The position numbers were made by a program, and so were the translations under genes. The notes beneath the pieces are model-generated. The model saw nothing but the letters and a program-made list of their open reading frames with translations, was not told the origin of the DNA and searched no databases. Shown piece after piece: positions 27,685 through 53,664 of a stretch of DNA of 64,000 bases (its first letter is position 1; each line of letters begins with the position of its first letter). Origin of the DNA: Octopus vulgaris (lineage: Eukaryota); contig OX597817.1 in the NCBI GenBank assembly GCA_951406725.2, positions 72,726,001-72,790,000 on the forward strand. The letters are read 5' to 3'.

Positions 27685-29470
27685 AGGTAAAAAGTTGAGA
27701 CAGTGTCACATGACAACTTGCTGGGGCTGCCTGCTGGAGCCTAGCAGCAGGTATTTAAAGGGAAATTTGATAGACAGTCAGTCGCCTGCTGACACTCGTT
27801 GATGCTACATCGAAGCGGCTAGGGAACAGAAGAAAGAAGACATGCACCCAACACCAGAGGTAGAGGAGTAGGGGCCGAAACCATATGTGGTTCCTCCTGA
27901 TGATGTCTTGAGCTAACTGGATCATATAAAGGAGCAGTTGTGATAGCAGACCACGAAACACGGTTGAAATTCCTCAGATACTGACTGCAGGGAAAAACTT
28001 GCTGACAATCCAGAAAGAGGGATGACAAAGCAGAGAGACGCTTGACAGTACGACAGCATAACGAAGGATCAAATGGGCTTGCAACCCGATCCAGGGTAAA
28101 ATTGCAACAAAAAAGCATAGGAAATCATGCCCCCATGATCCCGGACCATGGGGGGGAGAATAAAAGATCAAATAGGAATGGAAAAAAATGAAATGGACTT
28201 GGACCGGAAATGGACAATGAGAAAGGAATGGTAGATGAGGAGTTCAGCTGCTGCGGAAAGGTGTTTGCTAGTTACATTGGGCTGAGAATCCACCAAAGGA
28301 AGATATGTCAGAAGAAAGTAATTCAACAACGCGGGTTGATATACCATAAGACGTGTGGCCAGAACCTCCTGGAAAATAACCATAGCGAGGTTCATTCCAC
28401 AGTTGAATTGGAACAGTCAAAAAGACTGATAGGCATGAAGAGGACAAAGGTTAAGTGGCTGAAAGCAAATGACGCAGCGAGTTATAAAAAATTTGACAAG
28501 GTAGCAAGACTGACCACCAAATTCAAAAGCGACGACAAACAAAAGCTCAAAAACCTGGCTAAAACAATCTACCAGGAAGGAGAGAAAAAATTTGGACTGG
28601 AAACAACAGGGAAGGTAGAATCAACAGCAAAGAGCAGACCATCGAAGAGAGAAAGACGGATTGCAAAGATTTGAGAAGAGAAGAAAAAACTCAGAACAAG
28701 ATGGAGGGATGCAAAGGAGGAGGAAAGAGAAGGGCTAAAGCAGCTATATGAAGAGATAAAAAAGAGGCATCGAGATCTGCTAAGAAAACAAAGAAGGAGG
28801 AGCAGAAGAAAGGAGAGAGAAAAAACTATCGTTGCTTTGTGAACAATCCCTATCAATATATGAAACATCTATTTACTGAAAGTAAAAGTGGAAAATTGGA
28901 TTGCACGAAAGAAGAGCTTGAACAACATCTGAAAGAGACATACAGTGACTCTGACAGAAATAAAGTACTCCCAGAAATGCATGGACTGAAGAAACCACCT
29001 GAACCAAGGGTACCATTTGATTTGAGTGACATCAAACAGAAAGAAATGGATGAGTTCATAAGAAAAGCAAGAGCAAAAAGTTCACCAGGGAACAATGGAG
29101 TGAGCTACAAGGTATATAAATATTACCCGAAATTACGTTTGCAGCTGTTTGCACTGATAAGAGAAATGTGGAAGAAGAAAGATGTAGCGGAGTGATGGTG
29201 TATAGCCGAAGGTATCTATCTACCTAAAGAGAAAGATGCAAAAACACTAGGACAATTTAGACCAATTTCATTATTAAATACTGACAGGAAAATAGTTTGG
29301 AATTATTGCTCTCTCTCCAGCAGTCACATCCATGTTGTTCCAATGAAGGGAGGAGGGTCAAGAGAATGTTTGCATCTGCTTGCAACTACATAGGCACCTA
29401 AAACAATTAGCAAAAGCATCATACCAGCTATCAGATCATACTTGCATGCGAGTCGCAGCTAAGCGTTTTC
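27685..29470 (+). mobile_element. RLE-type non-LTR retrotransposon remnant (HERO-like), internally deleted
   Basis: N-terminal zinc finger CCGKVFASYIGLRIHQRKIC. RT start KARAKSSPGNNGVSYKVYK...EGIYLPKEKDAKTLGQFRPISLLN. Contains stops and breaks off at ~29310. Boundaries approximate. Confidence 0.8.
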
Positions 29471-33284: not shown

Positions 33285-33846
33285 CACATAAATATATATG
33301 TACATATACACACAGATATATATATATATAAATATATATATAGATATATGTGTTTGTGTGTGTGTGTGTGTGTATTTCAAAAGTTGATAAGTATGTTGAA
33401 TGAATGACAAAGAAGTATGCAATACTCCTAGAATGAACAGTTTATTTAAGCTGAATATTTATCTTGTGAATCCAGTTTCACACCACGCTGCAAATCTTTG
33501 TCTGAGAACTGTTACAACCTGATGCAATTGTTTACATCCATTGGTGTGGCCTCTTATTAATGTCTATTCACACACATACACATATGATTACATGTTGGCA
33601 TACTGGATTATTTCTTCATACTTGGTGAGTATCATACTTGTCATAAAGCCTGGTGGTGTTGAGACTTATTGGTGGGTGCAGCTGACAGCACATCAATTAC
33701 ACAAAACCTTTAGGTCTGAGAGAACATAATCCAGTTTACCAACACACAGTTACAAACTCTACATGCAGGTGTGCATTGAGCACTTTTTATATCTGCATAA
33801 AAACGTAAATACGATGTGTGTGTGATGATATATATATATATATATA

Positions 33847-34125
33847 TACAAAATAAGAAAATGGAGAAATACACCTTAATCAATAATCAACTACCAGATA
33901 ATACCCAATCACATAATTCATTAACCCACTACATATGAACATCAAAGTCAAACATAATAGTACAGAACAAAACAATGCACATCAATGAGTAATATGATAC
34001 AATAAGTACAATATGTATGTTTGACCTTGATGTTCATATGTAGTGGGTTAATAAATTATGTGATTGGGTATTATCTGGTAGTTGATTATTGATTAAGGTG
34101 TATTTCTCCATTTTCTTATTTTGTA
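33847..34125. repeat. Near-perfect inverted repeat, 110-bp arms, 59-nt spacer
   Basis: 33847-33956 is the reverse complement of 34016-34125, with 2 mismatches seen. It is embedded in (TA)n. Confidence 0.92.
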
Positions 34126-35001
34126 TTATAAATTTGTGGTAAAACATTTTACCTTCGCCCATATAATACAATAAATGAATTAATTGCATCGCAATTCTTA
34201 ACATTTATGTACTAACTTTGTTGGGTGCTTTACTGGCAGTATATTGGATATATGTTATCCCAGTATATTGGATATATGTTATCTCAATTTATATATATAT
34301 ATATATACATACACACATGTAATGTTTTGGTTCTCTGACAAAAGAATGTAATATACATAATTATTTTTATGTGTATATAATATTTGTTGTAATAGCAAAT
34401 GCTAAACTACTTTGCTTCACTGCTTGAACATCTACTGCTGTTGGACTGTGTGTGTGTGTATGTTTGAGCATGTATGGAAGTGTATAATAACTATACAGAT
34501 GTATATAACTATAACAGATGTATAACCACAGATATATAATAACTATATAGATGTGTGTGTGTATCTATATATATATTTATATATACAGACATGGCTATAT
34601 GGGTAGAAGTTCACTTTACAATCAACATGGTTTGGGGTTCAGTCTCACTGCATAGTTCTTTGGGCAAGTGTCTTCTTTCAACCTACAGGTCAACCAATAC
34701 CTTTTAATGGGATTTTGTTAATGTAAGCTACAGGATAGCTTGTGTGTGCCCATTGGGCATTTGTGTGCATGTATGTGTGTGTGTGTGTGTGTGTGTGTAT
34801 GAGTATTTGTGTTTGTTTTTTTCACCACTTGACAAACAGTGCTGGCTTACTTTCATTGCCGTAACTTTGGGCTAGAAGAAACCGCTACAATAACTAACAG
34901 GTATAACACGGAAAATAACTGGTATCAGTTTAATCAGATATAACTGTCAAGGCAGTGCCCAGCTATGGCCACAATCCAATGACTTAAGTAAAAGAACAAA
35001 A

Positions 35002-44949: not shown

Positions 44950-45835
44950 AACTTAGATATGTTTCGACCAAAGATTGGTCCAGGCCATGTCTAACTTAAT
45001 AGCACCACCTGATAGGATTATCTAAATCCTGTTTAAGTCAAGTTCTGTTTATGGTCCATTCAAGGAGTGAGTTGTATCCAGGTATGGGTGGCTTATCCGG
45101 TATTCCTTGAAGAAATCTGTCCAAACTCCGTTTAAAGATGATGGGATTCTTTTCCTCTTTGATCTCTTTCGGGACAATGTTAAATAGAGCAGGACCTGTT
45201 GAGGAAAAGAAATTATGTTGCAGTGTACCTATATGCTGTGATCCTGAATTGGGCAGGAGACGTATGGCTCGTGGTCCCAGCCTTTGATGAACCTTGAAAC
45301 TAATGTTCACGTCATTTGGGCAAAGTTGGCGGTATATTGTCCACATCGTACAAATGATGAACCGCTCGTGGCAGCGCTGGAGAGTGTAGAGTTTCAAGGC
45401 TTTAAGGCAGTCCCAATAATCGAGAGCAGTCATGCCTTCAATTCGTTTAGTGGGTGCCCTCTAGGGTGATTCAATCCTCGAGATGTTTTGTCTTGTATGG
45501 GGAGACCACAATGGGCAGCAGTATTCGAGGTGTGACCGTACAAAGGAGGAGAAAAGTGATATGGTGACACCTTGTTCTCTGGACCGGAAGGTTCTTAAGA
45601 TCCAGGAGCTCATCCTATGAGCTAGATCAACCTTATTTTTGAGGTGGGCACTCCAACTGAGATTGTCATCAACAATTACGCCTAGGTCTCTGATATTGTT
45701 AGAGGCTGTGAATGGTTCCCCTAAAGGAAGAGAGTATGGCTGTTTTAGTGTGAACTTTCTTCCAAAATGCATCAGCTCAAATATTCCCTCGTTTAGTTGC
45801 CTTTTGTTTTTGTCTGCCCATTGACTTAGCATATA
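44950..45835 (-). mobile_element. 5'-truncated CR1-group LINE (ORF2 C-terminus and 3' UTR)
   Basis: IRDLGVIVDDNLSWSAH, FVRSHLEYCCPLWSPH, LKALKLYTLQR and FKRSLDRFL. In-frame stop at ~45461. Confidence 0.88.
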
Positions 45836-46891
45836 GATCATTCATTCATACATACATACATACATACATACATACATACATACATACATACATGCACACA
45901 CACACACACACACACACATACATAGATACATACATACATACATACATATATGGTGGTTGTCTAGTCCTTATGTAGTGTCTGACCACCCCCTGTACCTACA
46001 CCTTAGCACCTTCATGGCGTCTGATGTGGCTTTTTAAACCAGACAATGTTTTGAAAAGATACACACATAGATTGCATATCCAATTTAGACCACTAAGTGC
46101 TGCAATTAAGTTCTGATCATTGTGGATCTTAAAATCTCATTTGAGGCCTTTGTTAGGTTTGCAGACCTTATGGCATACATGATACTGAAATGTGTGCACA
46201 GACATATAGGCAGAATAGTTGGTTGAGGTTCGTTTTCCATGAGTCTGCAAATGAGATTTGAGCCCAGCGAAAGAAAGGCATGATCTGTAACAAACTGTAC
46301 ACACATATCATCATCATCATCATTGTTTAACATCCACCTTCCCTGCTAGCATGTGTGGAAGGGTTTCACAAGAGCTGGCCAGGCAGAAGCCTGCCCAGAC
46401 TTCTGTGACTGTTTTGGCAGGATTTTTAGAGATGGATGCCCTTCCTAACACTGACCACTCAGAAGAGTGGACTATATATAATGAATTTATAATAAAGAAG
46501 AATAGCAATTTATATCCGGTGGTGGCTATATGGAGCAAGGCCAGATTGAAAACAGTTAAGTGTTTGGTGGAGTGGTTGGTATAGCAAAAGTCACTTTTTT
46601 GGAGGTGGATATTCACAGATGTTCAGAAAATCTGTCAATACATATATATATATAATAATACTATATTTGTTCCACGTCCTCGCATTGTTGTGTTTTCATG
46701 TTTGGATTAACTTTATATATATATAGAATGGTTGTATACTGTCAATCTAACAAGAACGTGACAGTAGGGGGTACACCACTGCTGTATAGCCCTAGGAAGC
46801 ATCGAACGCCTCCTGATAGCTTTGACACATTTTTTCCCTGTGTCCTTATATACATGTACGAAGGGGAGACAAACACCCCCGGCTGCCAGAA

Positions 46892-46949
46892 CTGCATCTA
46901 GGGACACCGTGTTTCAGGATCATTGCCCTTCATCGGCCTAGAGTAGCAG
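46892..46949 (-). ncRNA. Type I hammerhead ribozyme (CCGAUGA core variant), same strand as the ORFs
   Basis: Minus strand ctgctactctagg CCGATGA aggg-caatga-tcct GAA aca-cgg-tgt C cctagatgcag. Confidence 0.75.
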
Positions 46950-47240
46950 ACACCGGTCAGCTGGTGATATTATATCTTTATTATGGGCACGATGGCCCTA
47001 ATTCAGAGGGGACATTACAAGACGGGACGTGGGGTACATGAAGTAAAAATAAAATATGAAATAAAGATGAATTATATATAATGAGATGGAACGGCTTACG
47101 AACCCCCAACTCGCAGTTCCGTTTAAAATACAATTGTACATTTTACAATTACATATATTCCAGTTCAAAATACAATTTTACATTTTACAATTTTACAATT
47201 AACAATTTTACATTTTAACATTACATATATTCCAGTTCTT

Positions 47241-48602
47241 TTATATTGGACGTTCGTCCGTCATATATTCTATTAAGTCCATTTGGTCTATTACATTTGG
47301 TAAATTGTCATACCGTACATACTGCGTTATATAAATAGCATTAAATATCTTTTTCAATTTTGTGAATGTTTCTTTTTCTATAACTGCGCCTTTTACATCG
47401 TCACCATACAGTTTTGGGTTCAACTTCACCCTGACCAATCCTTTCCTACCTGCAAGTCTCTTTTCCACTTCTGTATCCTTGATATACATCACAAATGGTT
47501 TCAGGTTTTTCCCTGCAGGTCTTCTTCCCCTCTTACACGCCTCCAACTACTCTTTCACTCTTGTCTCCTATTCTTGGTCAAACTCTGTCCTTGTCTGCTC
47601 TCTCGCTTCTCTTTTACTTCCTTTTCTTTGCACGTTCTTTCTTCTTTTTCTTCTGTTATCTTGCTTTTGATTCTTTTCTTTTTAGAACTTTCGGTGGTGA
47701 TTCCACCCTTGTTCTCTTCCTATCTTCTGTTCTTTCCTCCTCTGCACTTGCTCGTTCTTCTTCCATATCCTCATTTAGCTGCTCCTCCGTTTGTGCCTCC
47801 ACTGCTTTCGCTTCCTCCTGCACTTCTCCCTCCTCCACACACGCATCTTTACACTCCTCTATTACAGCCTCCGGTGCCTTCGTTTTCTCCAGCGGGCACA
47901 CATCCTTCATGTGGCCCCTCAATTTACAATGATAGGAGACTGGGGGTCTTCCCTCTACCACGACTCTAAGCCGTGTCTCATCAGGGAAGACCAACTCCTC
48001 CGGGATGTTGTACAGGTCTCGCACGGTTATATGTGCCAGAACCTGCACCGCATATCCCCACCACTTTACCTCTGTTGACTTCTCCACCTTCAACACCTCC
48101 ACACTATCCTTGCAGTTGAAGACTACTGCCGCTAATAACCTCTCCATATTAAATTCGGGCGAAATTCTACTAATTCTTATCCTCACTGCCCTCCTTCCGC
48201 AGTAACTTGGTAGTAAAGTCCACCTTTCCGTTTTCAAAATTCTTGTTGCATTCTTTCTTGCTTCATTTTCAGTTTTAAAATATACCACCACTGTGGCATA
48301 TTTCCTTCCTCTTTGAAAAATGTGGGTTCACCCTCAATTTCCTTCAGACACTTTTCTACTTCTTCCGTTTCTGCTACTTCTATTTTTTTCGACGCCACAC
48401 ACCATGTCCTGTACGTTATCATTCGCTTCTCCGCGTTGTTTTCTTCTTCCTCGGACGGTGTGACTCTCACGCAGTCACCCTCCCTCTTCAAACTGTCGAA
48501 ATACTTTTCTAGAGTCTTCCTCTCAACCACCACTTCTTCCATTTCCAGTTCACTGGCAACCAGGCCTCTGCCTGCTGCTCTCGCATAAGTCTGGTCTTGC
48601 AT
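47241..48602 (-). pseudogene. Disrupted second copy of the CCHC zinc-knuckle ORF1-like gene
   Basis: Colinear with 49049-50404. 1-nt deletions near 48312 and ~47680, a TAG near 47548, and the first knuckle Cys changed to Ser (SYHC). Confidence 0.85.
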
Positions 48603-49048
48603 TTTCAAAAATCTCCAAAAAAAATTTTTTCACGTCCTCCAGCAACGAACTCGAACTCACAACCTCTTCACAATGACGCACTCGAAACAAACACACCAGA
48701 ATAATGACTCCAAAAAAAAAATAGGTCGGCTGGTGATATTATATCTTTATTATGGGCACGATGGCCCGAATGAAGACGGGACATTACAAGACGGGACGTG
48801 GGGTACATAAAGTAAAAATAAAATATGAAATAAAGATGAATTATATGTAATGAGATGGAACGGCTTACGAACCATCAACTCGCAGTTCCGTTTAAAATAC
48901 AATTTTACATTTTATACTTTTACAATTTACAATTTTACATTTTAACATTACATATATTCCAGTTCAAAATACAATTTTACATTTTAACATTACATATATT
49001 CCAGTTCAAAATACAATTTTACATTTTACAATTTACAATGTTACAATT

Positions 49049-50404
49049 TTAAAATCTCAGTTCTATTGGACGTTGGTCCGTAATGTACTTTGTCAACACC
49101 ATTTGATCCACCACATTTGGCAAATTCTCATAACATACGTAATACGTTGAATAAACCTGCTCAAACATACTTTTCAATTTACAAAATGTTCCTTTATCTA
49201 CAAGTACCCCTTTCATATCGTCATCATGGAGTTCTGGGTGTAATTTAACCCTAATTAATCCCTTCCTACCTGCAAGTCTTTTTTCCACTTCTGTGTCTTT
49301 CACATATAACATCAATACTTTCAGGTATTTTCCTTCAGGTCTTTTTCCTTTTTTACATGCATCCAACTGTTCTCTCACTTTTTTGCTCCATTCTAAGTGT
49401 ACCTCTGTCATTGTCTGTTCGTCCTTTTCTTTGCACCTTCTCTCTTTTTCTTCTGTTATCTTGCTTTTGGTTTTTTTCTTCTTTAGAACTTTCGGTGGTG
49501 ATTCCACCCTTGTTCTCTTCCTATCTCCTGTTCTTTCCTCCTCTGCACTTGCATGTTCTTCTTCCATATCCTCGTTTAGCTGCTCCTCCGTTTGTGCCTC
49601 CACTGCTTTTGTTTCTTCCTGCACTTCTCCCTCCTCCACACACGTATCTTTACTCTCCTTCGTTACCGCCTCCGGTGCTATGGTTTTCTTCAGCGGGCAC
49701 ACATCCTTCATGTGGCCTCTTAATTTACAATGATAGCAGACTGGGGGTCTTCCCTCTACCACGACTCTAAGCCGTGTCTCATCAGGGAAGACCAACTCCT
49801 CCGGGATGTTGTACAGGTCTCGCACGGTTATATGTGCCAGAACCTGCACCGCATATCCCCACCACTTAACCTCTGTTGACTTCTCCACCTTCAACACCTC
49901 CACACTTTCCTTGCAGTTAAAAACTACTGCCGCTAATAACCTCTCCATATTAAATTCGGGCGCAATTCTACCAATTCTTATCCTCACTGCCCTCCTTCCG
50001 CAGTAACTTGGTAGTAAAGTCCAACTTTCCGTTTTCAAAATTCTTGTTGCATTCTTTTTTGCTTCGTTCTCATTTTCAAAATGTACCACCACTGTGGCAT
50101 ATTTCCTTCCTCTGTTGAAAAATGTGGGTTCTCCCTCAATTCCTTTCAGGCATTCTTCTATTTCTTCTGTCTCTGCTACTTCTATTTTTTTCGACGCCAC
50201 ACACCATGTCCTGTACGTTATCATACGCTTCTCCGCGCTGCTTTCCTCTTCTTCGGACGGTGTGACTCTCACGCAGTCACCCTCCCTCTTCAAACTGTCG
50301 AAATACTTTTGTAAAGTCTTCTGTTCGACCACCACTTCCTCCATTTCCAGTTCACTGGCAACCAGGCCTCTGCCTGCTGCTCTCGCATAAGTCTGCTCTT
50401 GCAT
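49049..50404 (-). CDS. Intact 451-aa L1/Tx1-type ORF1-like nucleic-acid-binding protein with CCHC zinc knuckle
   Basis: ATG at 50404 (the ORF track starts two codons earlier at TTG). TYARAA N-terminal motif, IPEELVF...RVVVEGRPPVCYHCKLRGHMKDVC (CX2CX4HX4C), acidic/basic linker and an uncharacterised ~105-aa C-terminal domain. No RT or endonuclease ORF follows. Confidence 0.8.
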   Translation of the reverse strand: MQEQTYARAAGRGLVASELEMEEVVVEQKTLQKYFDSLKREGDCVRVTPSEEEESSAEKRMITYRTWCVASKKIEVAETEEIEECLKGIEGEPTFFNRGRKYATVVVHFENENEAKKNATRILKTESWTLLPSYCGRRAVRIRIGRIAPEFNMERLLAAVVFNCKESVEVLKVEKSTEVKWWGYAVQVLAHITVRDLYNIPEELVFPDETRLRVVVEGRPPVCYHCKLRGHMKDVCPLKKTIAPEAVTKESKDTCVEEGEVQEETKAVEAQTEEQLNEDMEEEHASAEEERTGDRKRTRVESPPKVLKKKKTKSKITEEKERRCKEKDEQTMTEVHLEWSKKVREQLDACKKGKRPEGKYLKVLMLYVKDTEVEKRLAGRKGLIRVKLHPELHDDDMKGVLVDKGTFCKLKSMFEQVYSTYYVCYENLPNVVDQMVLTKYITDQRPIELRF

Positions 50405-50870
50405 TTTCAAAAATCTCCAAAAAAAAAATTTTCCACGTCCTCCAGCAACGAACTCGAACTCACAACCTCTTCACAATGACGGACTCGAAACAAACACACC
50501 AGAATAACCAAAAAAAAAGGAGGCTGGTGATATTTGCCTCGACTTCGTAATTGTATATACCTATATTCAGTGAAGTTTATTCACTGATTATCAAAATAAG
50601 AAATATTGAATTTCTAAATCTCTCGTAGAGACATGTACGGTGGTGGGGCGATAGAATGGTTGTATACTGTCAATCTAACAAGAACGTGACAGTAGGGGGT
50701 ACACCACCGCTGTATAACCCTAGGAAGCATCGAACGCCTCCTGATAGCTTTGACACATTTTTTCCCTGTGTCCTTATATACATATACGAAGGGGAGACAA
50801 ACACCCCCTTCACTGAATATAGGTATATACAATTACGAAGTCGAGGCAAATATCACCGGCTGACCGGTGT

Positions 50871-50928
50871 CTGCTACTCTAGGCCGATGAAGGACAACGA
50901 TCCTGAAACACGGTGTCCCTAGATGCAG
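50871..50928 (+). ncRNA. Type I hammerhead ribozyme (CCGAUGA core variant)
   Basis: Stem I tctagg/cctaga extended by ctgc/gcag, stem II agga/tcct, stem III aca/tgt. Predicted cleavage after GUC at 50917. Confidence 0.78.
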
Positions 50929-53664
50929 TTCCGGCAGCCGGGGGTGTTTGTCTCCCCTTCGTATATGTATATAAGGACACAGGGAAAAAATGTGTCAAAG
51001 CTATCAGGAGGGTTTGATGCTTCCTGGGCTATACAGTGGTGGTGTACCCCTACTGTCACGTTCTTGTTAGATTGACAGTATACAACCATTCTATCGCCCA
51101 CCACTGTACATGTCTCTACGAGAGATTTAGAAATTCAATATTTCTATATATATATATATATATATGACAAGTTTCTTTCAGTTTCCATTTACCAAATCAC
51201 CTCACATGGCTTTCATTTCTCCAGAGCTATAGTACAAAACACTTGTCCAAGCTGGCAAGACTATATGGTTGGGAAGCAAGTTGTGAGGCTAAAATTTAGG
51301 GCAAGTGTTGGAACATTACCTAGTTTCATTGTGGTGATATGGGTTATGTAAGCAAGATCTATATTTCTATTTATTTTTACTATTCAGTATTCTTTAAGAA
51401 AGAAAAAAAAGATGCTATACAATTTATGTGAGTACTAAAGTACTATGTAGCTTTTGTGTTCTTTTATTGTCAGATCTTTACCACAAGCTGACACATACAC
51501 CAATACATCATATAATAAACATAGTTCACAACCTATTAAAGATGTATGCAGTTAGGTTATTGGGCTCACAATCTTTAGGTCATAGGTTCTATTTTCAGAC
51601 TGGTGGCATATAGTGTCCTTGAGCAAGGTATTTCATTTCACATTGCACCAGTCCACTCAGCTGAAAATGAGTACCAATAGCAGGTAGCAGTTGTATATTA
51701 ATTTTGCATCAGACTGGTGAAGTCTTATACAGGGAGGAGCCATATATTCTCAATTTCCTAAATAACTTGGAAACACAGATTAGCCCTGACTTCATAAATC
51801 TGTTAGCTCAAGGTAGAATTTTGGTACACAATCTGAAAACAGGGTATATATACTTTGGTAATGTCAGGGTTAATAATGGTGATGGATGACAAAATCAGTA
51901 GAATAGCTGACAACATTCCTCACAGTATTCATATAGTTTTATATGTAACTTTTTAGATTACTCAGAAGGTTGAATAGGTGCAGCAGCCTTCTAAGACTGA
52001 TAATTGATTTTGCTGATACCAACCCAGCCTGCTCATCAATAGGAAAATGTGGGTGGAGAGTTTTGTCCAAATATTTGCAAGAACTTAGCAAAAGGCAACT
52101 AGGGATCAAACAGTAGGGCTAAACACCAGTTTTTTTACTTCTTTTTTTTTTTCTTGATTTAATCAAAAAAGGAAGGGTGTTATCTGTGATACTTTTCAGA
52201 GCCACTAAGAGTAGTTGGAGGAAATCAATCTCAAACTGAAGACCTGGCCTGCATTATTCTTGCAGCAGAGTGAACTCAGCTAAGTGTCGGAGGGCAATAG
52301 TAAATAGGGAAAACTGATAAGTTTACCATCCAGAAACTACGAATGGTCCCTCCTGTAGACTTCCATCCAGTTTCCATCTACCAAACTCCATGCATTAAAA
52401 ATGGTTGAAGACACTTGCTCAAGATATCATGCAGAGGAATTGAATCCAAAACCATATAATTTCAAAGAAGAATTATTAATAAGACCATACCTATGTCAAT
52501 TTTAATCTTACAGCTCTGAGTTCAACTCACATTGTAGTTGAATTTGCCTTACTTTCCTTTTTTCTTTTTTTTAATCAATGTAATTAGTACTAGATACTTA
52601 ATTAGGTTGATTTTCCCACAAAATCACATTATCTTACAACAATGTTAAAAACCAATCTATGAGCAGTCAAGATTAAAAGATATAAAGCAACATCAGGTTA
52701 CCAAAGTTTAACTCTTTGTTTTCACTTGTGACACTTTCCAAGGAATGAGAGAAAGACAATGTGAGAATTGTTAACAATTTGGACAAGAGACAAGAAAAAG
52801 TGTGTGAGAGAGAGAGATATTAGCTTAGTCTAGAACTGAAGCTGTATCACAAACTCAGCTTTCTAGGAGCTTACCACTATATGACAGCAGGAATAAGCTC
52901 TTAGATATTAGTACATTGAAATTACAATCTCACAATCACCAAGCACATGCTCTCTCTCTCTCTTTCGCGATTTTAATCCTGATATCACAGCTGCACTAAG
53001 TATGCTTTTCTTTGCAGAATTAATCCTTTTGCTGTATTACATAATTTATGCCACATGCTCATTGTTAAATTACCAACCACCAGCTGAGGATAACCAAATA
53101 AATATAACCCAACAAAAGAGATGCTATACAGTCACTCAGTTTGTTAGAAATGACAACCAAAATCTTCTTCAATCCATACTCTCCAATACCTTACGAAAAG
53201 GACACATTGCAAAATGTAGTCTTAGATACACCATGCCTAAAAATGATGGGGTGATAACAGTGGCTGGAATGTCTGTTTTATCAAAGTTGACCTGGGGTTA
53301 AACAACAACAATCAATGTTTGTTTTACCTCAACTATGATCATTATTAAAAGTGATTTATTTATCAGGGCAACCTATTTTTTGAGTAAGGTTGTTCCAACT
53401 AGAACAAGCAACAAACCTCTGAGTATCATTAATACAACCATCTGAAAACAGTACAAAATCATCATGCTCCAAAACTTCTTGACACACCTAGAATTCTACT
53501 AATGTTGTATAAGGACATTGAAACAGACCGCCTTATGTCTACAAGCCGATTTCAATTCAGTGCACCATCCTTCTTCATTTGGGATGAATCCAACATAGAG
53601 TTGATAGCTATCTATCAATAAAGTATAATGATATTGAAATACTCGAGATTGTGAATCTTTTCTA

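Follow-up and report, generated by a model that had tools for sequence, protein, structure and literature searches.

Our analysis concerns a window of 64,000 nucleotides of the Octopus vulgaris genome (assembly GCA_951406725.2, contig OX597817.1, positions 72,726,001 to 72,790,000), the whole stretch of DNA that was analysed, in which a short tandem repeat with a type I hammerhead-like motif is broken at one precise site by two stacked insertions. Each of these insertions, here called cassettes, is built around a single open reading frame (ORF) homologous to ORF1 of L1-group long interspersed nuclear elements (LINEs), ORF2 being absent. We hold with good confidence that the arrangement represents a Penelope-type retrozyme in which two members of an ORF1-only family inserted at one site, and that the family is served by an L1/Tx1-type LINE; that the insertions landed at a transcription start site is only slightly more likely than not. 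No single target sequence emerged for the lineage; the duplicated motifs vary with the type of target and what recurs is position, namely just 5' of the hammerhead in three dissimilar repeat families, at the first base (+1) of U2 and U1 small nuclear RNA (snRNA) genes, and 18–30 nt behind TATA words.

The first-pass annotation of the window had described an uninterrupted monomer with its hammerhead on the plus strand, and a minus-strand unit that stops at a short motif, gives way to cassettes A and B, and resumes at the same motif to run through a second hammerhead. This architecture was confirmed, as was the absence of reverse transcriptase (RT) and endonuclease from both cassettes, and the coordinates are collected in Table 1. 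On the minus strand the motif before cassette A is reached through a partial unit, the 24-nt linker and the opening 53 bases of the following unit. The insertion site precedes the hammerhead core by about 30 nt, and (TA)n borders the whole arrangement on both sides. The single ORF of about 450 amino acids with a CCHC zinc knuckle that had been assigned to each cassette is intact in A (451 aa) but frameshifted in B, where one nucleotide is missing near 48312, another near 47680, and 17 nt are inserted near 47618. Cassette B shares 86% identity with A, while a copy in another hammerhead repeat family (family 2) matches it at 96.5%, and the 3' untranslated regions (UTRs) of A and B carry short AT-rich tandem repeats with a period of about 42 nt (48890–49051 and 47121–47238) which differ in copy number. 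Searches with cassette, LINE and monomer were run against the 2.8 Gb genome assembly. Since exact junctions between element end and target recur at 13 places on 10 contigs, with none for a reversed control, and the empty site is spanned by contigs from three other runs, the arrangement is neither chance nor misassembly.

A DNA search with the cassette gave 59 matches (39 of 238 candidates scored) and a protein search at least 150 scored matches, copy numbers here and below being minima. Among the 30 best loci, 21 lie in the repeat family of the window (18 places, 14 contigs), 20 of these with the junction at the same motif and one rearranged; one lies in a second hammerhead family and eight in other targets. 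A further 20 more diverged copies, taken from the 150 protein matches, comprise 17 in hammerhead repeats, two behind TATA words and one in an unidentified target. The units are about 1.75 kb long, with a 13–19-nt target motif repeated at their ends, and are often stacked head-to-tail, up to seven or more at a time, in mixtures of subfamilies whose amino-acid identity spans about 31% to 95%. Neither the 30 loci nor 14 longer regions that were examined showed an ORF2 inside a cassette unit. The ORF is kept under purifying selection, with ratios of nonsynonymous to synonymous substitution (dN/dS) of 0.09–0.31 for the core and 0.30–0.67 for the C-terminal domain in 11 comparisons. Eight ORF1 homologues were looked up, of which seven are named, from three Octopus species and Argonauta, and one carries no name.

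The ORF1 protein (ORF1p) of cassette A comprises an RNA recognition motif (RRM, aa 50–137), a second RRM-like domain (138–218), a single CCHC knuckle (222–237; a weak Pfam match, E 0.72), a disordered linker and a C-terminal alpha/beta domain (334–440). The predicted structure has a mean predicted local distance difference test (pLDDT) score of 80, with the C-terminal domain well predicted, and in this model the RRM is best matched by the La protein (Z 9.3, root-mean-square deviation (rmsd) 2.8, 82 residues). The structure search suggested by the annotation recognised the RRM and gave nothing clear for the C-terminal domain (87 residues aligned at best, with Z 4.6 and rmsd 6.7; no Foldseek match at E≤0.001; no Atlas match). 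This domain was also undetectable in the LINE ORF1 and in a second ORF1-only lineage, a result that shows neither novelty nor absence. In an unrooted tree of rows trimmed to the core domain, which included 15 database rows of unknown structure, the window-type cassettes (a clade of their own, support 100/99), the second ORF1-only group and the LINE ORF1s form separate supported groups, and the cassette core shares 27–29% identity with the LINE ORF1. The second, distant ORF1-only lineage (L121, L136 and L137; 33–37% identity, different C-terminus) is stacked in the same arrays. An antisense reading, with the T-tract as the poly(A) tail, was rejected: AATAAA marks the junction that stays constant, the T-tract end is the one lost by 5' truncation (L235), and the LINE runs in the same polarity.

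Longer relatives, which the annotation had suggested searching for, were found in the form of a 5.5-kb LINE encoding an ORF1 with a CCHC knuckle and an ORF2 with an apurinic/apyrimidinic endonuclease (APE) and RT (domains RVT_1, Exo_endo_phos and zf-RVT). It starts directly behind two cassettes, and it gave 42 matches. The 20 matches that were fetched and inspected include four at the same site in the window repeat family, 13 immediately 5' of the hammerhead in family 2, one whose array ends in family 3, and two at the first base of a U2 snRNA gene. LINEs and cassettes stack in either order and share a short motif at their 3' ends. The best Protein Data Bank (PDB) match of ORF2 is human L1 ORF2p (E 1.6e-66), with R2 at E 3.7e-23, and no named Tx1 reference appeared among the 120 listed homologues or among the PDB matches; the LINE is called L1/Tx1-type by resemblance.

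The insertion sites and 3' tail motif common to both make this LINE the likely trans-mobiliser of the cassettes. Very probably its APE-RT protein would copy the cassette RNA by target-primed reverse transcription, the cassette's ORF1p would bind and package its own RNA in cis, and every insertion would restore the target site, so that unrelated subfamilies could stack. The retrozyme would have entered (TA)n first, as 361-nt units arranged head-to-tail and accompanied by an inverted 5'-truncated copy, and the two members of the ORF1-only family would have followed at their common site. It counts against this scheme that no LINE with an ORF1 close to that of the cassette was found among the 20 of 42 matches inspected, and trans-mobilisation therefore rests on the shared sites, the short shared 3' motif, and L214, a cassette with a LINE-type 5' end.

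The host repeat has a unit of 361 nt (337 nt plus a 24-nt linker). A monomer search produced 1825 first-look candidates, 40 of which were scored to give 106 matches, and the 30 best of the more than 1800 candidates were inspected; copies form 361–364-nt tandems with inverted truncated partners. The hammerhead assignment in the annotation is borne out by motif order and stem pairing but not by Rfam, which showed no hammerhead at the window locus at gathering or E-value thresholds. Motif and pairing scores of at least 10 were obtained in 12 of 16 segments from the three repeat families, with a lenient parser that mis-paired stem I in 4 of the 16, whereas 0 of 3000 shuffles reached 9; a strict pattern matched two of 20 LINE flanks and none of nine further loci. 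The three families keep the motif order and stem pairing with different paired sequences, and show no blastn similarity outside the ribozyme. The window core is one base off the hammerhead consensus, and several other cores also deviate, so that the motif is that of a putative ribozyme. The third family (L227, L229 and L234) has degenerate cores, L234 showing a compact stem III form.

Within 1.5 kb of each of the 30 best monomers, no frame of at least 200 aa was recognised as a Penelope RT/GIY-YIG ORF. A 430-aa frame adjoining a cassette array (L126:1784–3073, minus strand) resembles by eye a fragment of a Penelope-type RT (weak RVT_1, E 0.075) and shows no link to the hammerhead repeat. Retrozymes are described as tandems of short units that have a type I hammerhead but encode no protein (10.64898/2026.07.22.740005; PMC7229834), and Penelope-like elements as showing an inverted copy truncated at its 5' end, a short tail on one side and a preference for (TA)n (PMC8557442). 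Because the tandems with inverted truncated partners match the latter features and the former definition, as far as these are set out in the sources, the host fits a high-copy Penelope-type hammerhead retrozyme in its motif, pairing and arrangement.

The annotation had left two readings side by side, an ORF1-only element that specifically parasitises a ribozyme retroelement and a protein-coding retrozyme, in which the cassette would be part of the hammerhead unit and both would be moved together by Penelope machinery. Most copies examined do lie in hammerhead repeats, and at two loci (L005 and L166) the unit is truncated between the upstream word described below and the site, as would fit 5' truncation of a composite RNA; occasional hitch-hiking of a cassette with its host unit therefore has some room. 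As the main explanation, however, joint movement is very improbable. Three cassettes 98.8–98.9% identical to one another each lie in a different, unrelated target (the range for cassettes in unrelated hosts being 96.5–98.9%), and cassettes occur both outside hammerhead repeats and in three different hammerhead families. Cassettes A and B belong to different subfamilies, B being 96.5% identical to a family-2 copy, and a Mantel test over eight loci found no correlation between the distances of cassettes and those of flanks (rho 0.21, p 0.20). Autonomous LINEs use the same site, the cassette's own AATAAA lies upstream of the ribozyme, and all 30 of the best monomers, which had been selected for being uninterrupted, carry a single empty motif. 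Of the parasite reading, insertion at a fixed site holds, whereas "specifically" was too narrow, given the two other hammerhead families, U2, U1 and the TATA-bearing repeats.

The word ATCAGT, with a background of 0.2% per site, lies 56–59 nt upstream of the insertion site at 17 of 18 cassette loci and 57–60 nt upstream at 13 of 16 outer LINE junctions (one counted by eye); across the two hammerhead families with the word, its distance to the site spans 55–60 nt. It is found 59 nt upstream of U2 +1 (L163) and 57–59 nt upstream of +1 at 20 of 20 U1 loci, 18 of them in one cluster. The U1 region around this word resembles the stretch before the window target motif (GAGGCAA..., upstream of L171–L188), possibly by chance. 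The start-site idea predicted further junctions at U2 and U1 +1, and these predictions were run as pattern tests. The first base of U2 is joined to an element 3' end at six places on three contigs (control, 0), one being an ORF1-only cassette, and that of U1 at one place (L235, G000 C18:49.05 Mb), a 5'-truncated LINE inside a large U1 cluster; a second U1 match was rejected as merely the upstream DNA of an intact gene. U2 genes with a LINE or cassette at +1 were recorded at L163:6532–6725 and L162, and in G000 at C3:20.79–20.83 Mb, C7:33.74 Mb and C23:43.32 Mb, one LINE pair being in tandem.

Outside hammerhead repeats and snRNA genes, TATAAA starts 18–30 nt upstream at eight of nine junctions (background 1.1%), which correspond to about four to five independent target types, so that the binomial p-value, calculated for seven independent targets, is overstated. 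One of these targets is an LTR-like (long terminal repeat) sequence of about 1.2 kb (L123–L126, L021, L026 and L218) that starts with TGTAG and has CCAAT and TATA boxes; it holds arrays of one to seven cassettes 22–26 nt behind the TATA word. Another cassette target (L209 and L233, G000 C4:98.7 Mb), with a 17-nt duplication, showed neither TATAAA nor an Rfam match and may be an uncharacterised small RNA gene. A variant U6 tandem array (L199–L203, G000 C1:139.42 Mb), with copies about 1.1–1.4 kb apart, has an octamer and TATA and is without ATCAGT.

Part of the motif's 5' copy is brought in by the element. At position +10 of the motif, T is found in 29 of 30 empty sites and C in 16 of 16 family-1 5' copies, including all nine that have T in the 3' copy, and a LINE inserted in U2 carries an extra 12-nt leader which matches the family-2 site and begins at ATC. 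Such a leader is the expected outcome if the element RNA starts at the host start site.

Some junctions could in principle be artefacts of another kind: template-jump chimeras, in which a small RNA is reverse transcribed to its 5' end and the enzyme then jumps to element RNA, a one-off LINE deletion, or an assembly error. The U1 case has a 3' junction only, and snRNA template switches have been described for Tx1 partners (PMC4494074). Yet the U2 case (L163) and the retrozymes show host upstream DNA and a duplicated motif on the 5' side, and the U1 case sits within a gene cluster. The one-off deletion that the annotation had named among the outcomes that would refute it is not borne out: the pattern is repeated at dozens of loci, and the ORF1-only units form a clade of their own under selection. 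Explanations of this group are scarcely credible.

On balance we lean slightly towards the view, drawn from sequence position, that the elements insert where transcription starts at an snRNA-type or TATA promoter, and that they borrow this promoter. The retrozyme would then carry an snRNA-type promoter; the element would land at about -3 to +14, be transcribed from the borrowed promoter and end its transcript at its own AATAAA, before the hammerhead, and the first 10–16 host bases would travel with it into the next insertion. RNA polymerase III (Pol III) is stopped by T-tracts, and the 5' T-tract therefore makes RNA polymerase II (Pol II) the likelier enzyme. The ORF1p may be tethered to the initiation complex, a guess made by analogy with Dictyostelium TRE5-A, or the site may be recognised by the endonuclease or through open start-site DNA. 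A precedent for the promoter is newt satellite 2, a hammerhead repeat described as transcribed from an snRNA promoter (PMC2220036, citing Coats 1994).

From this follows a wider proposal, for which we see an even chance: that an L1-group LINE lineage and its ORF1-only passengers choose sites by promoter position and not by sequence, with the thousands of hammerhead retrozymes as the main safe harbour and promoter source and with possible guidance by ORF1p. Tx1 families target snRNA genes, microsatellites and other transposons (PMC4494074), and many of the octopus duplications begin with a loose W-rich ATC. The LINE endonuclease may accordingly read DNA sequence, with subfamilies that have drifted to different multicopy targets; the start-site link would then be a by-product, as copies landing behind promoters would be transcribed and multiply. 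We hold this possible, at rather less than an even chance. Three cassettes as similar as those above in three unrelated targets speak against it, as does one LINE group (93–96% identical to the query) that uses family-2 repeats and U2 alike, and selection for expressed masters leaves unexplained the same relative position of nearly all daughter copies examined.

Several observations weigh against choice of sites by promoter position. L005 and L166 are occupied though the word is missing and in L161 it lies at 50 nt, as against 57–60, three cases which favour sequence recognition; by eye, two of 29 occupied and seven of 30 empty units lack it (p 0.15). Copies of a repeat family are not independent and the upstream-word match thus rests on two families, the third carrying a variant that differs at two bases. 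In each of the three families the word also forms one side of a hairpin and may be kept for RNA structure. ATCAGT was found in none of 15 U6 matches, many of which look like retrocopies. The 5' side shows no U1 promoter or duplication at the U1 LINE (L235) and is degenerate at the U2 cassette (L236). The TATA window was picked after the data had been seen, and the starts of retrozyme and element were placed by inference from sequence position.

Table 1. Features of the composite locus, in window coordinates
Feature	Position	Strand	Remark
Interrupted unit, 3' part (positions 42–287), (TA)n end	46723..46971	-	
Hammerhead-like motif in resumed unit	46941-46898	-	
Target motif, 3' copy	46955..46971	-	
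Cassette B: second insertion, other subfamily, ORF frameshifted	46972..48721 (about)	-	
Target motif copy / leader separating cassettes A and B	48722..48740	-	
Cassette A: ORF1-only non-autonomous element (T-tract, 5' UTR, ORF, 3' UTR ending AATAAAGAT)	48741..50518	-	
Cassette A ORF1, 451 aa, intact	49049..50404	-	
Interrupted unit, 5' part, ending with target motif 5' copy (50534-50519)	50519..50574	-	
Predicted transcription start	near 50531	-	putative, from sequence position
24-nt linker of 361-nt unit, not in plus-strand copy	50575..50598	-	
Word ATCAGTG, putative snRNA-type promoter element, 57 nt upstream of predicted start	50588-50582	-	promoter role inferred
Partial upstream repeat unit (positions 133–337), head-to-tail with interrupted unit	50599..50808	-	
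Inverted 5'-truncated hammerhead repeat copy (unit positions 1–337), target site empty, (TA)n end	50808..51144	+	
Target motif, single, empty	50849..50865	+	
Type I hammerhead-like motif: stem I 5/5, stem II 4/4, short palindromic stem III, GUC site	50879..50922	+	

Elsewhere in the window, a 154-aa ORF with a weak C2H2 finger (28210–28674, plus strand; E 0.005) is probably an N-terminal fragment of a retroelement, and a near-perfect, AT-rich inverted repeat (33846–34126; 111-nt arms, 98%, 59-nt gap) adjoins a TA tract. A decayed LINE RT fragment on the minus strand (45500–45780) is CR1/L2-like by eye.

Insertion at a set position relative to a host promoter is a property of Dictyostelium TRE5-A, yeast Ty3 and fission yeast Tf1. 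R2, for its part, relies on host transcription (PMC4494074). The octopus elements would share with these either position-specific insertion relative to a promoter or dependence on host transcription, but the targets of the others are Pol III genes, Pol II upstream regions or rDNA, and an animal L1-group LINE at +1 of snRNA-type or TATA promoters would differ from them all. The closest parallel for the cassettes is HAL1 (half-L1), which encodes only ORF1p and needs an L1-group ORF2 (PMC5753468). Common to both are a single ORF1-type ORF without ORF2, an amplified family of its own, target duplications and a maintained ORF, whereas HAL1 is described for mammalian L1 and the parent of the cassettes is a target-selective invertebrate LINE. 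The cassette ORF1 further differs in its RRM-RRM-CCHC architecture with an extra C-terminal domain, and at least two deep ORF1-only lineages coexist whose copies stack at one site.

Tx1-clade APE-RT LINEs, such as Keno and the crocodilian Tx1-Mar with its SINEU passengers, insert in snRNA genes or other transposons; their tandems sandwich a duplication, non-autonomous partners are mobilised to the same sites, and transcription from the flank has been considered possible (PMC4494074). That source, in the sections drawn on here, says nothing of hammerhead repeats as targets or of passengers that encode protein. Keno and Utopia insert before U2 nucleotide 39, and the only snRNA-gene targeters given in the 2015 paper are these two and the DNA transposons Dada-U1 and Dada-U6 (PMC4640811); the octopus lineage, in contrast, joins U2 and U1 at +1. 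As in retrozymes and Penelope pseudo-LTRs, the host repeat consists of short tandem type I hammerhead units; its inverted 5'-truncated copy and (TA)n recall Penelope-like elements, and with newt satellite 2 it may share an snRNA-type promoter. It differs from these in serving as the landing site for another class of retroelement. A published octopus repeat library lists 13 recently active L1-Tx1 families with targets not described, and its main text contains none of the terms hammerhead, ribozyme, nested or target (PMC13282606); that library may already hold consensus sequences of the cassette or LINE.

ORF1-only L1 derivatives, Tx1 targeting of snRNA genes and transposons with passengers, and retrozymes are thus already known, and no report of their combination was found. 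In the open literature, at the level of listings and abstract openings, nothing was found on LINEs that target hammerhead repeats, on ORF1-only passengers of Tx1 type or on LINE insertion at an snRNA gene +1, subscription papers, Repbase, Dfam and supplements being outside this scope.

In known target-specific LINEs the choice of site is put down to endonucleases that read DNA sequence. Near-identical elements lying in unrelated sequences, which have in common only their position relative to likely promoters, allow a different targeting rule to be tested for an animal LINE. Should the promoter link fail, what would be left is tidy but modest, a HAL1-like family belonging to a LINE of Tx1 type, with a new target set. 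The insertions also point within a few bases to a candidate promoter and start of a mollusc retrozyme, a kind of RNA whose transcription appears to be little studied, and they reveal a three-level dependence of ORF1-only passenger, LINE and Penelope-type retrozyme. Finally, ORF1-only lineages under selection across deep divergence provide a clean case in which to ask why a passenger keeps its own ORF1p.

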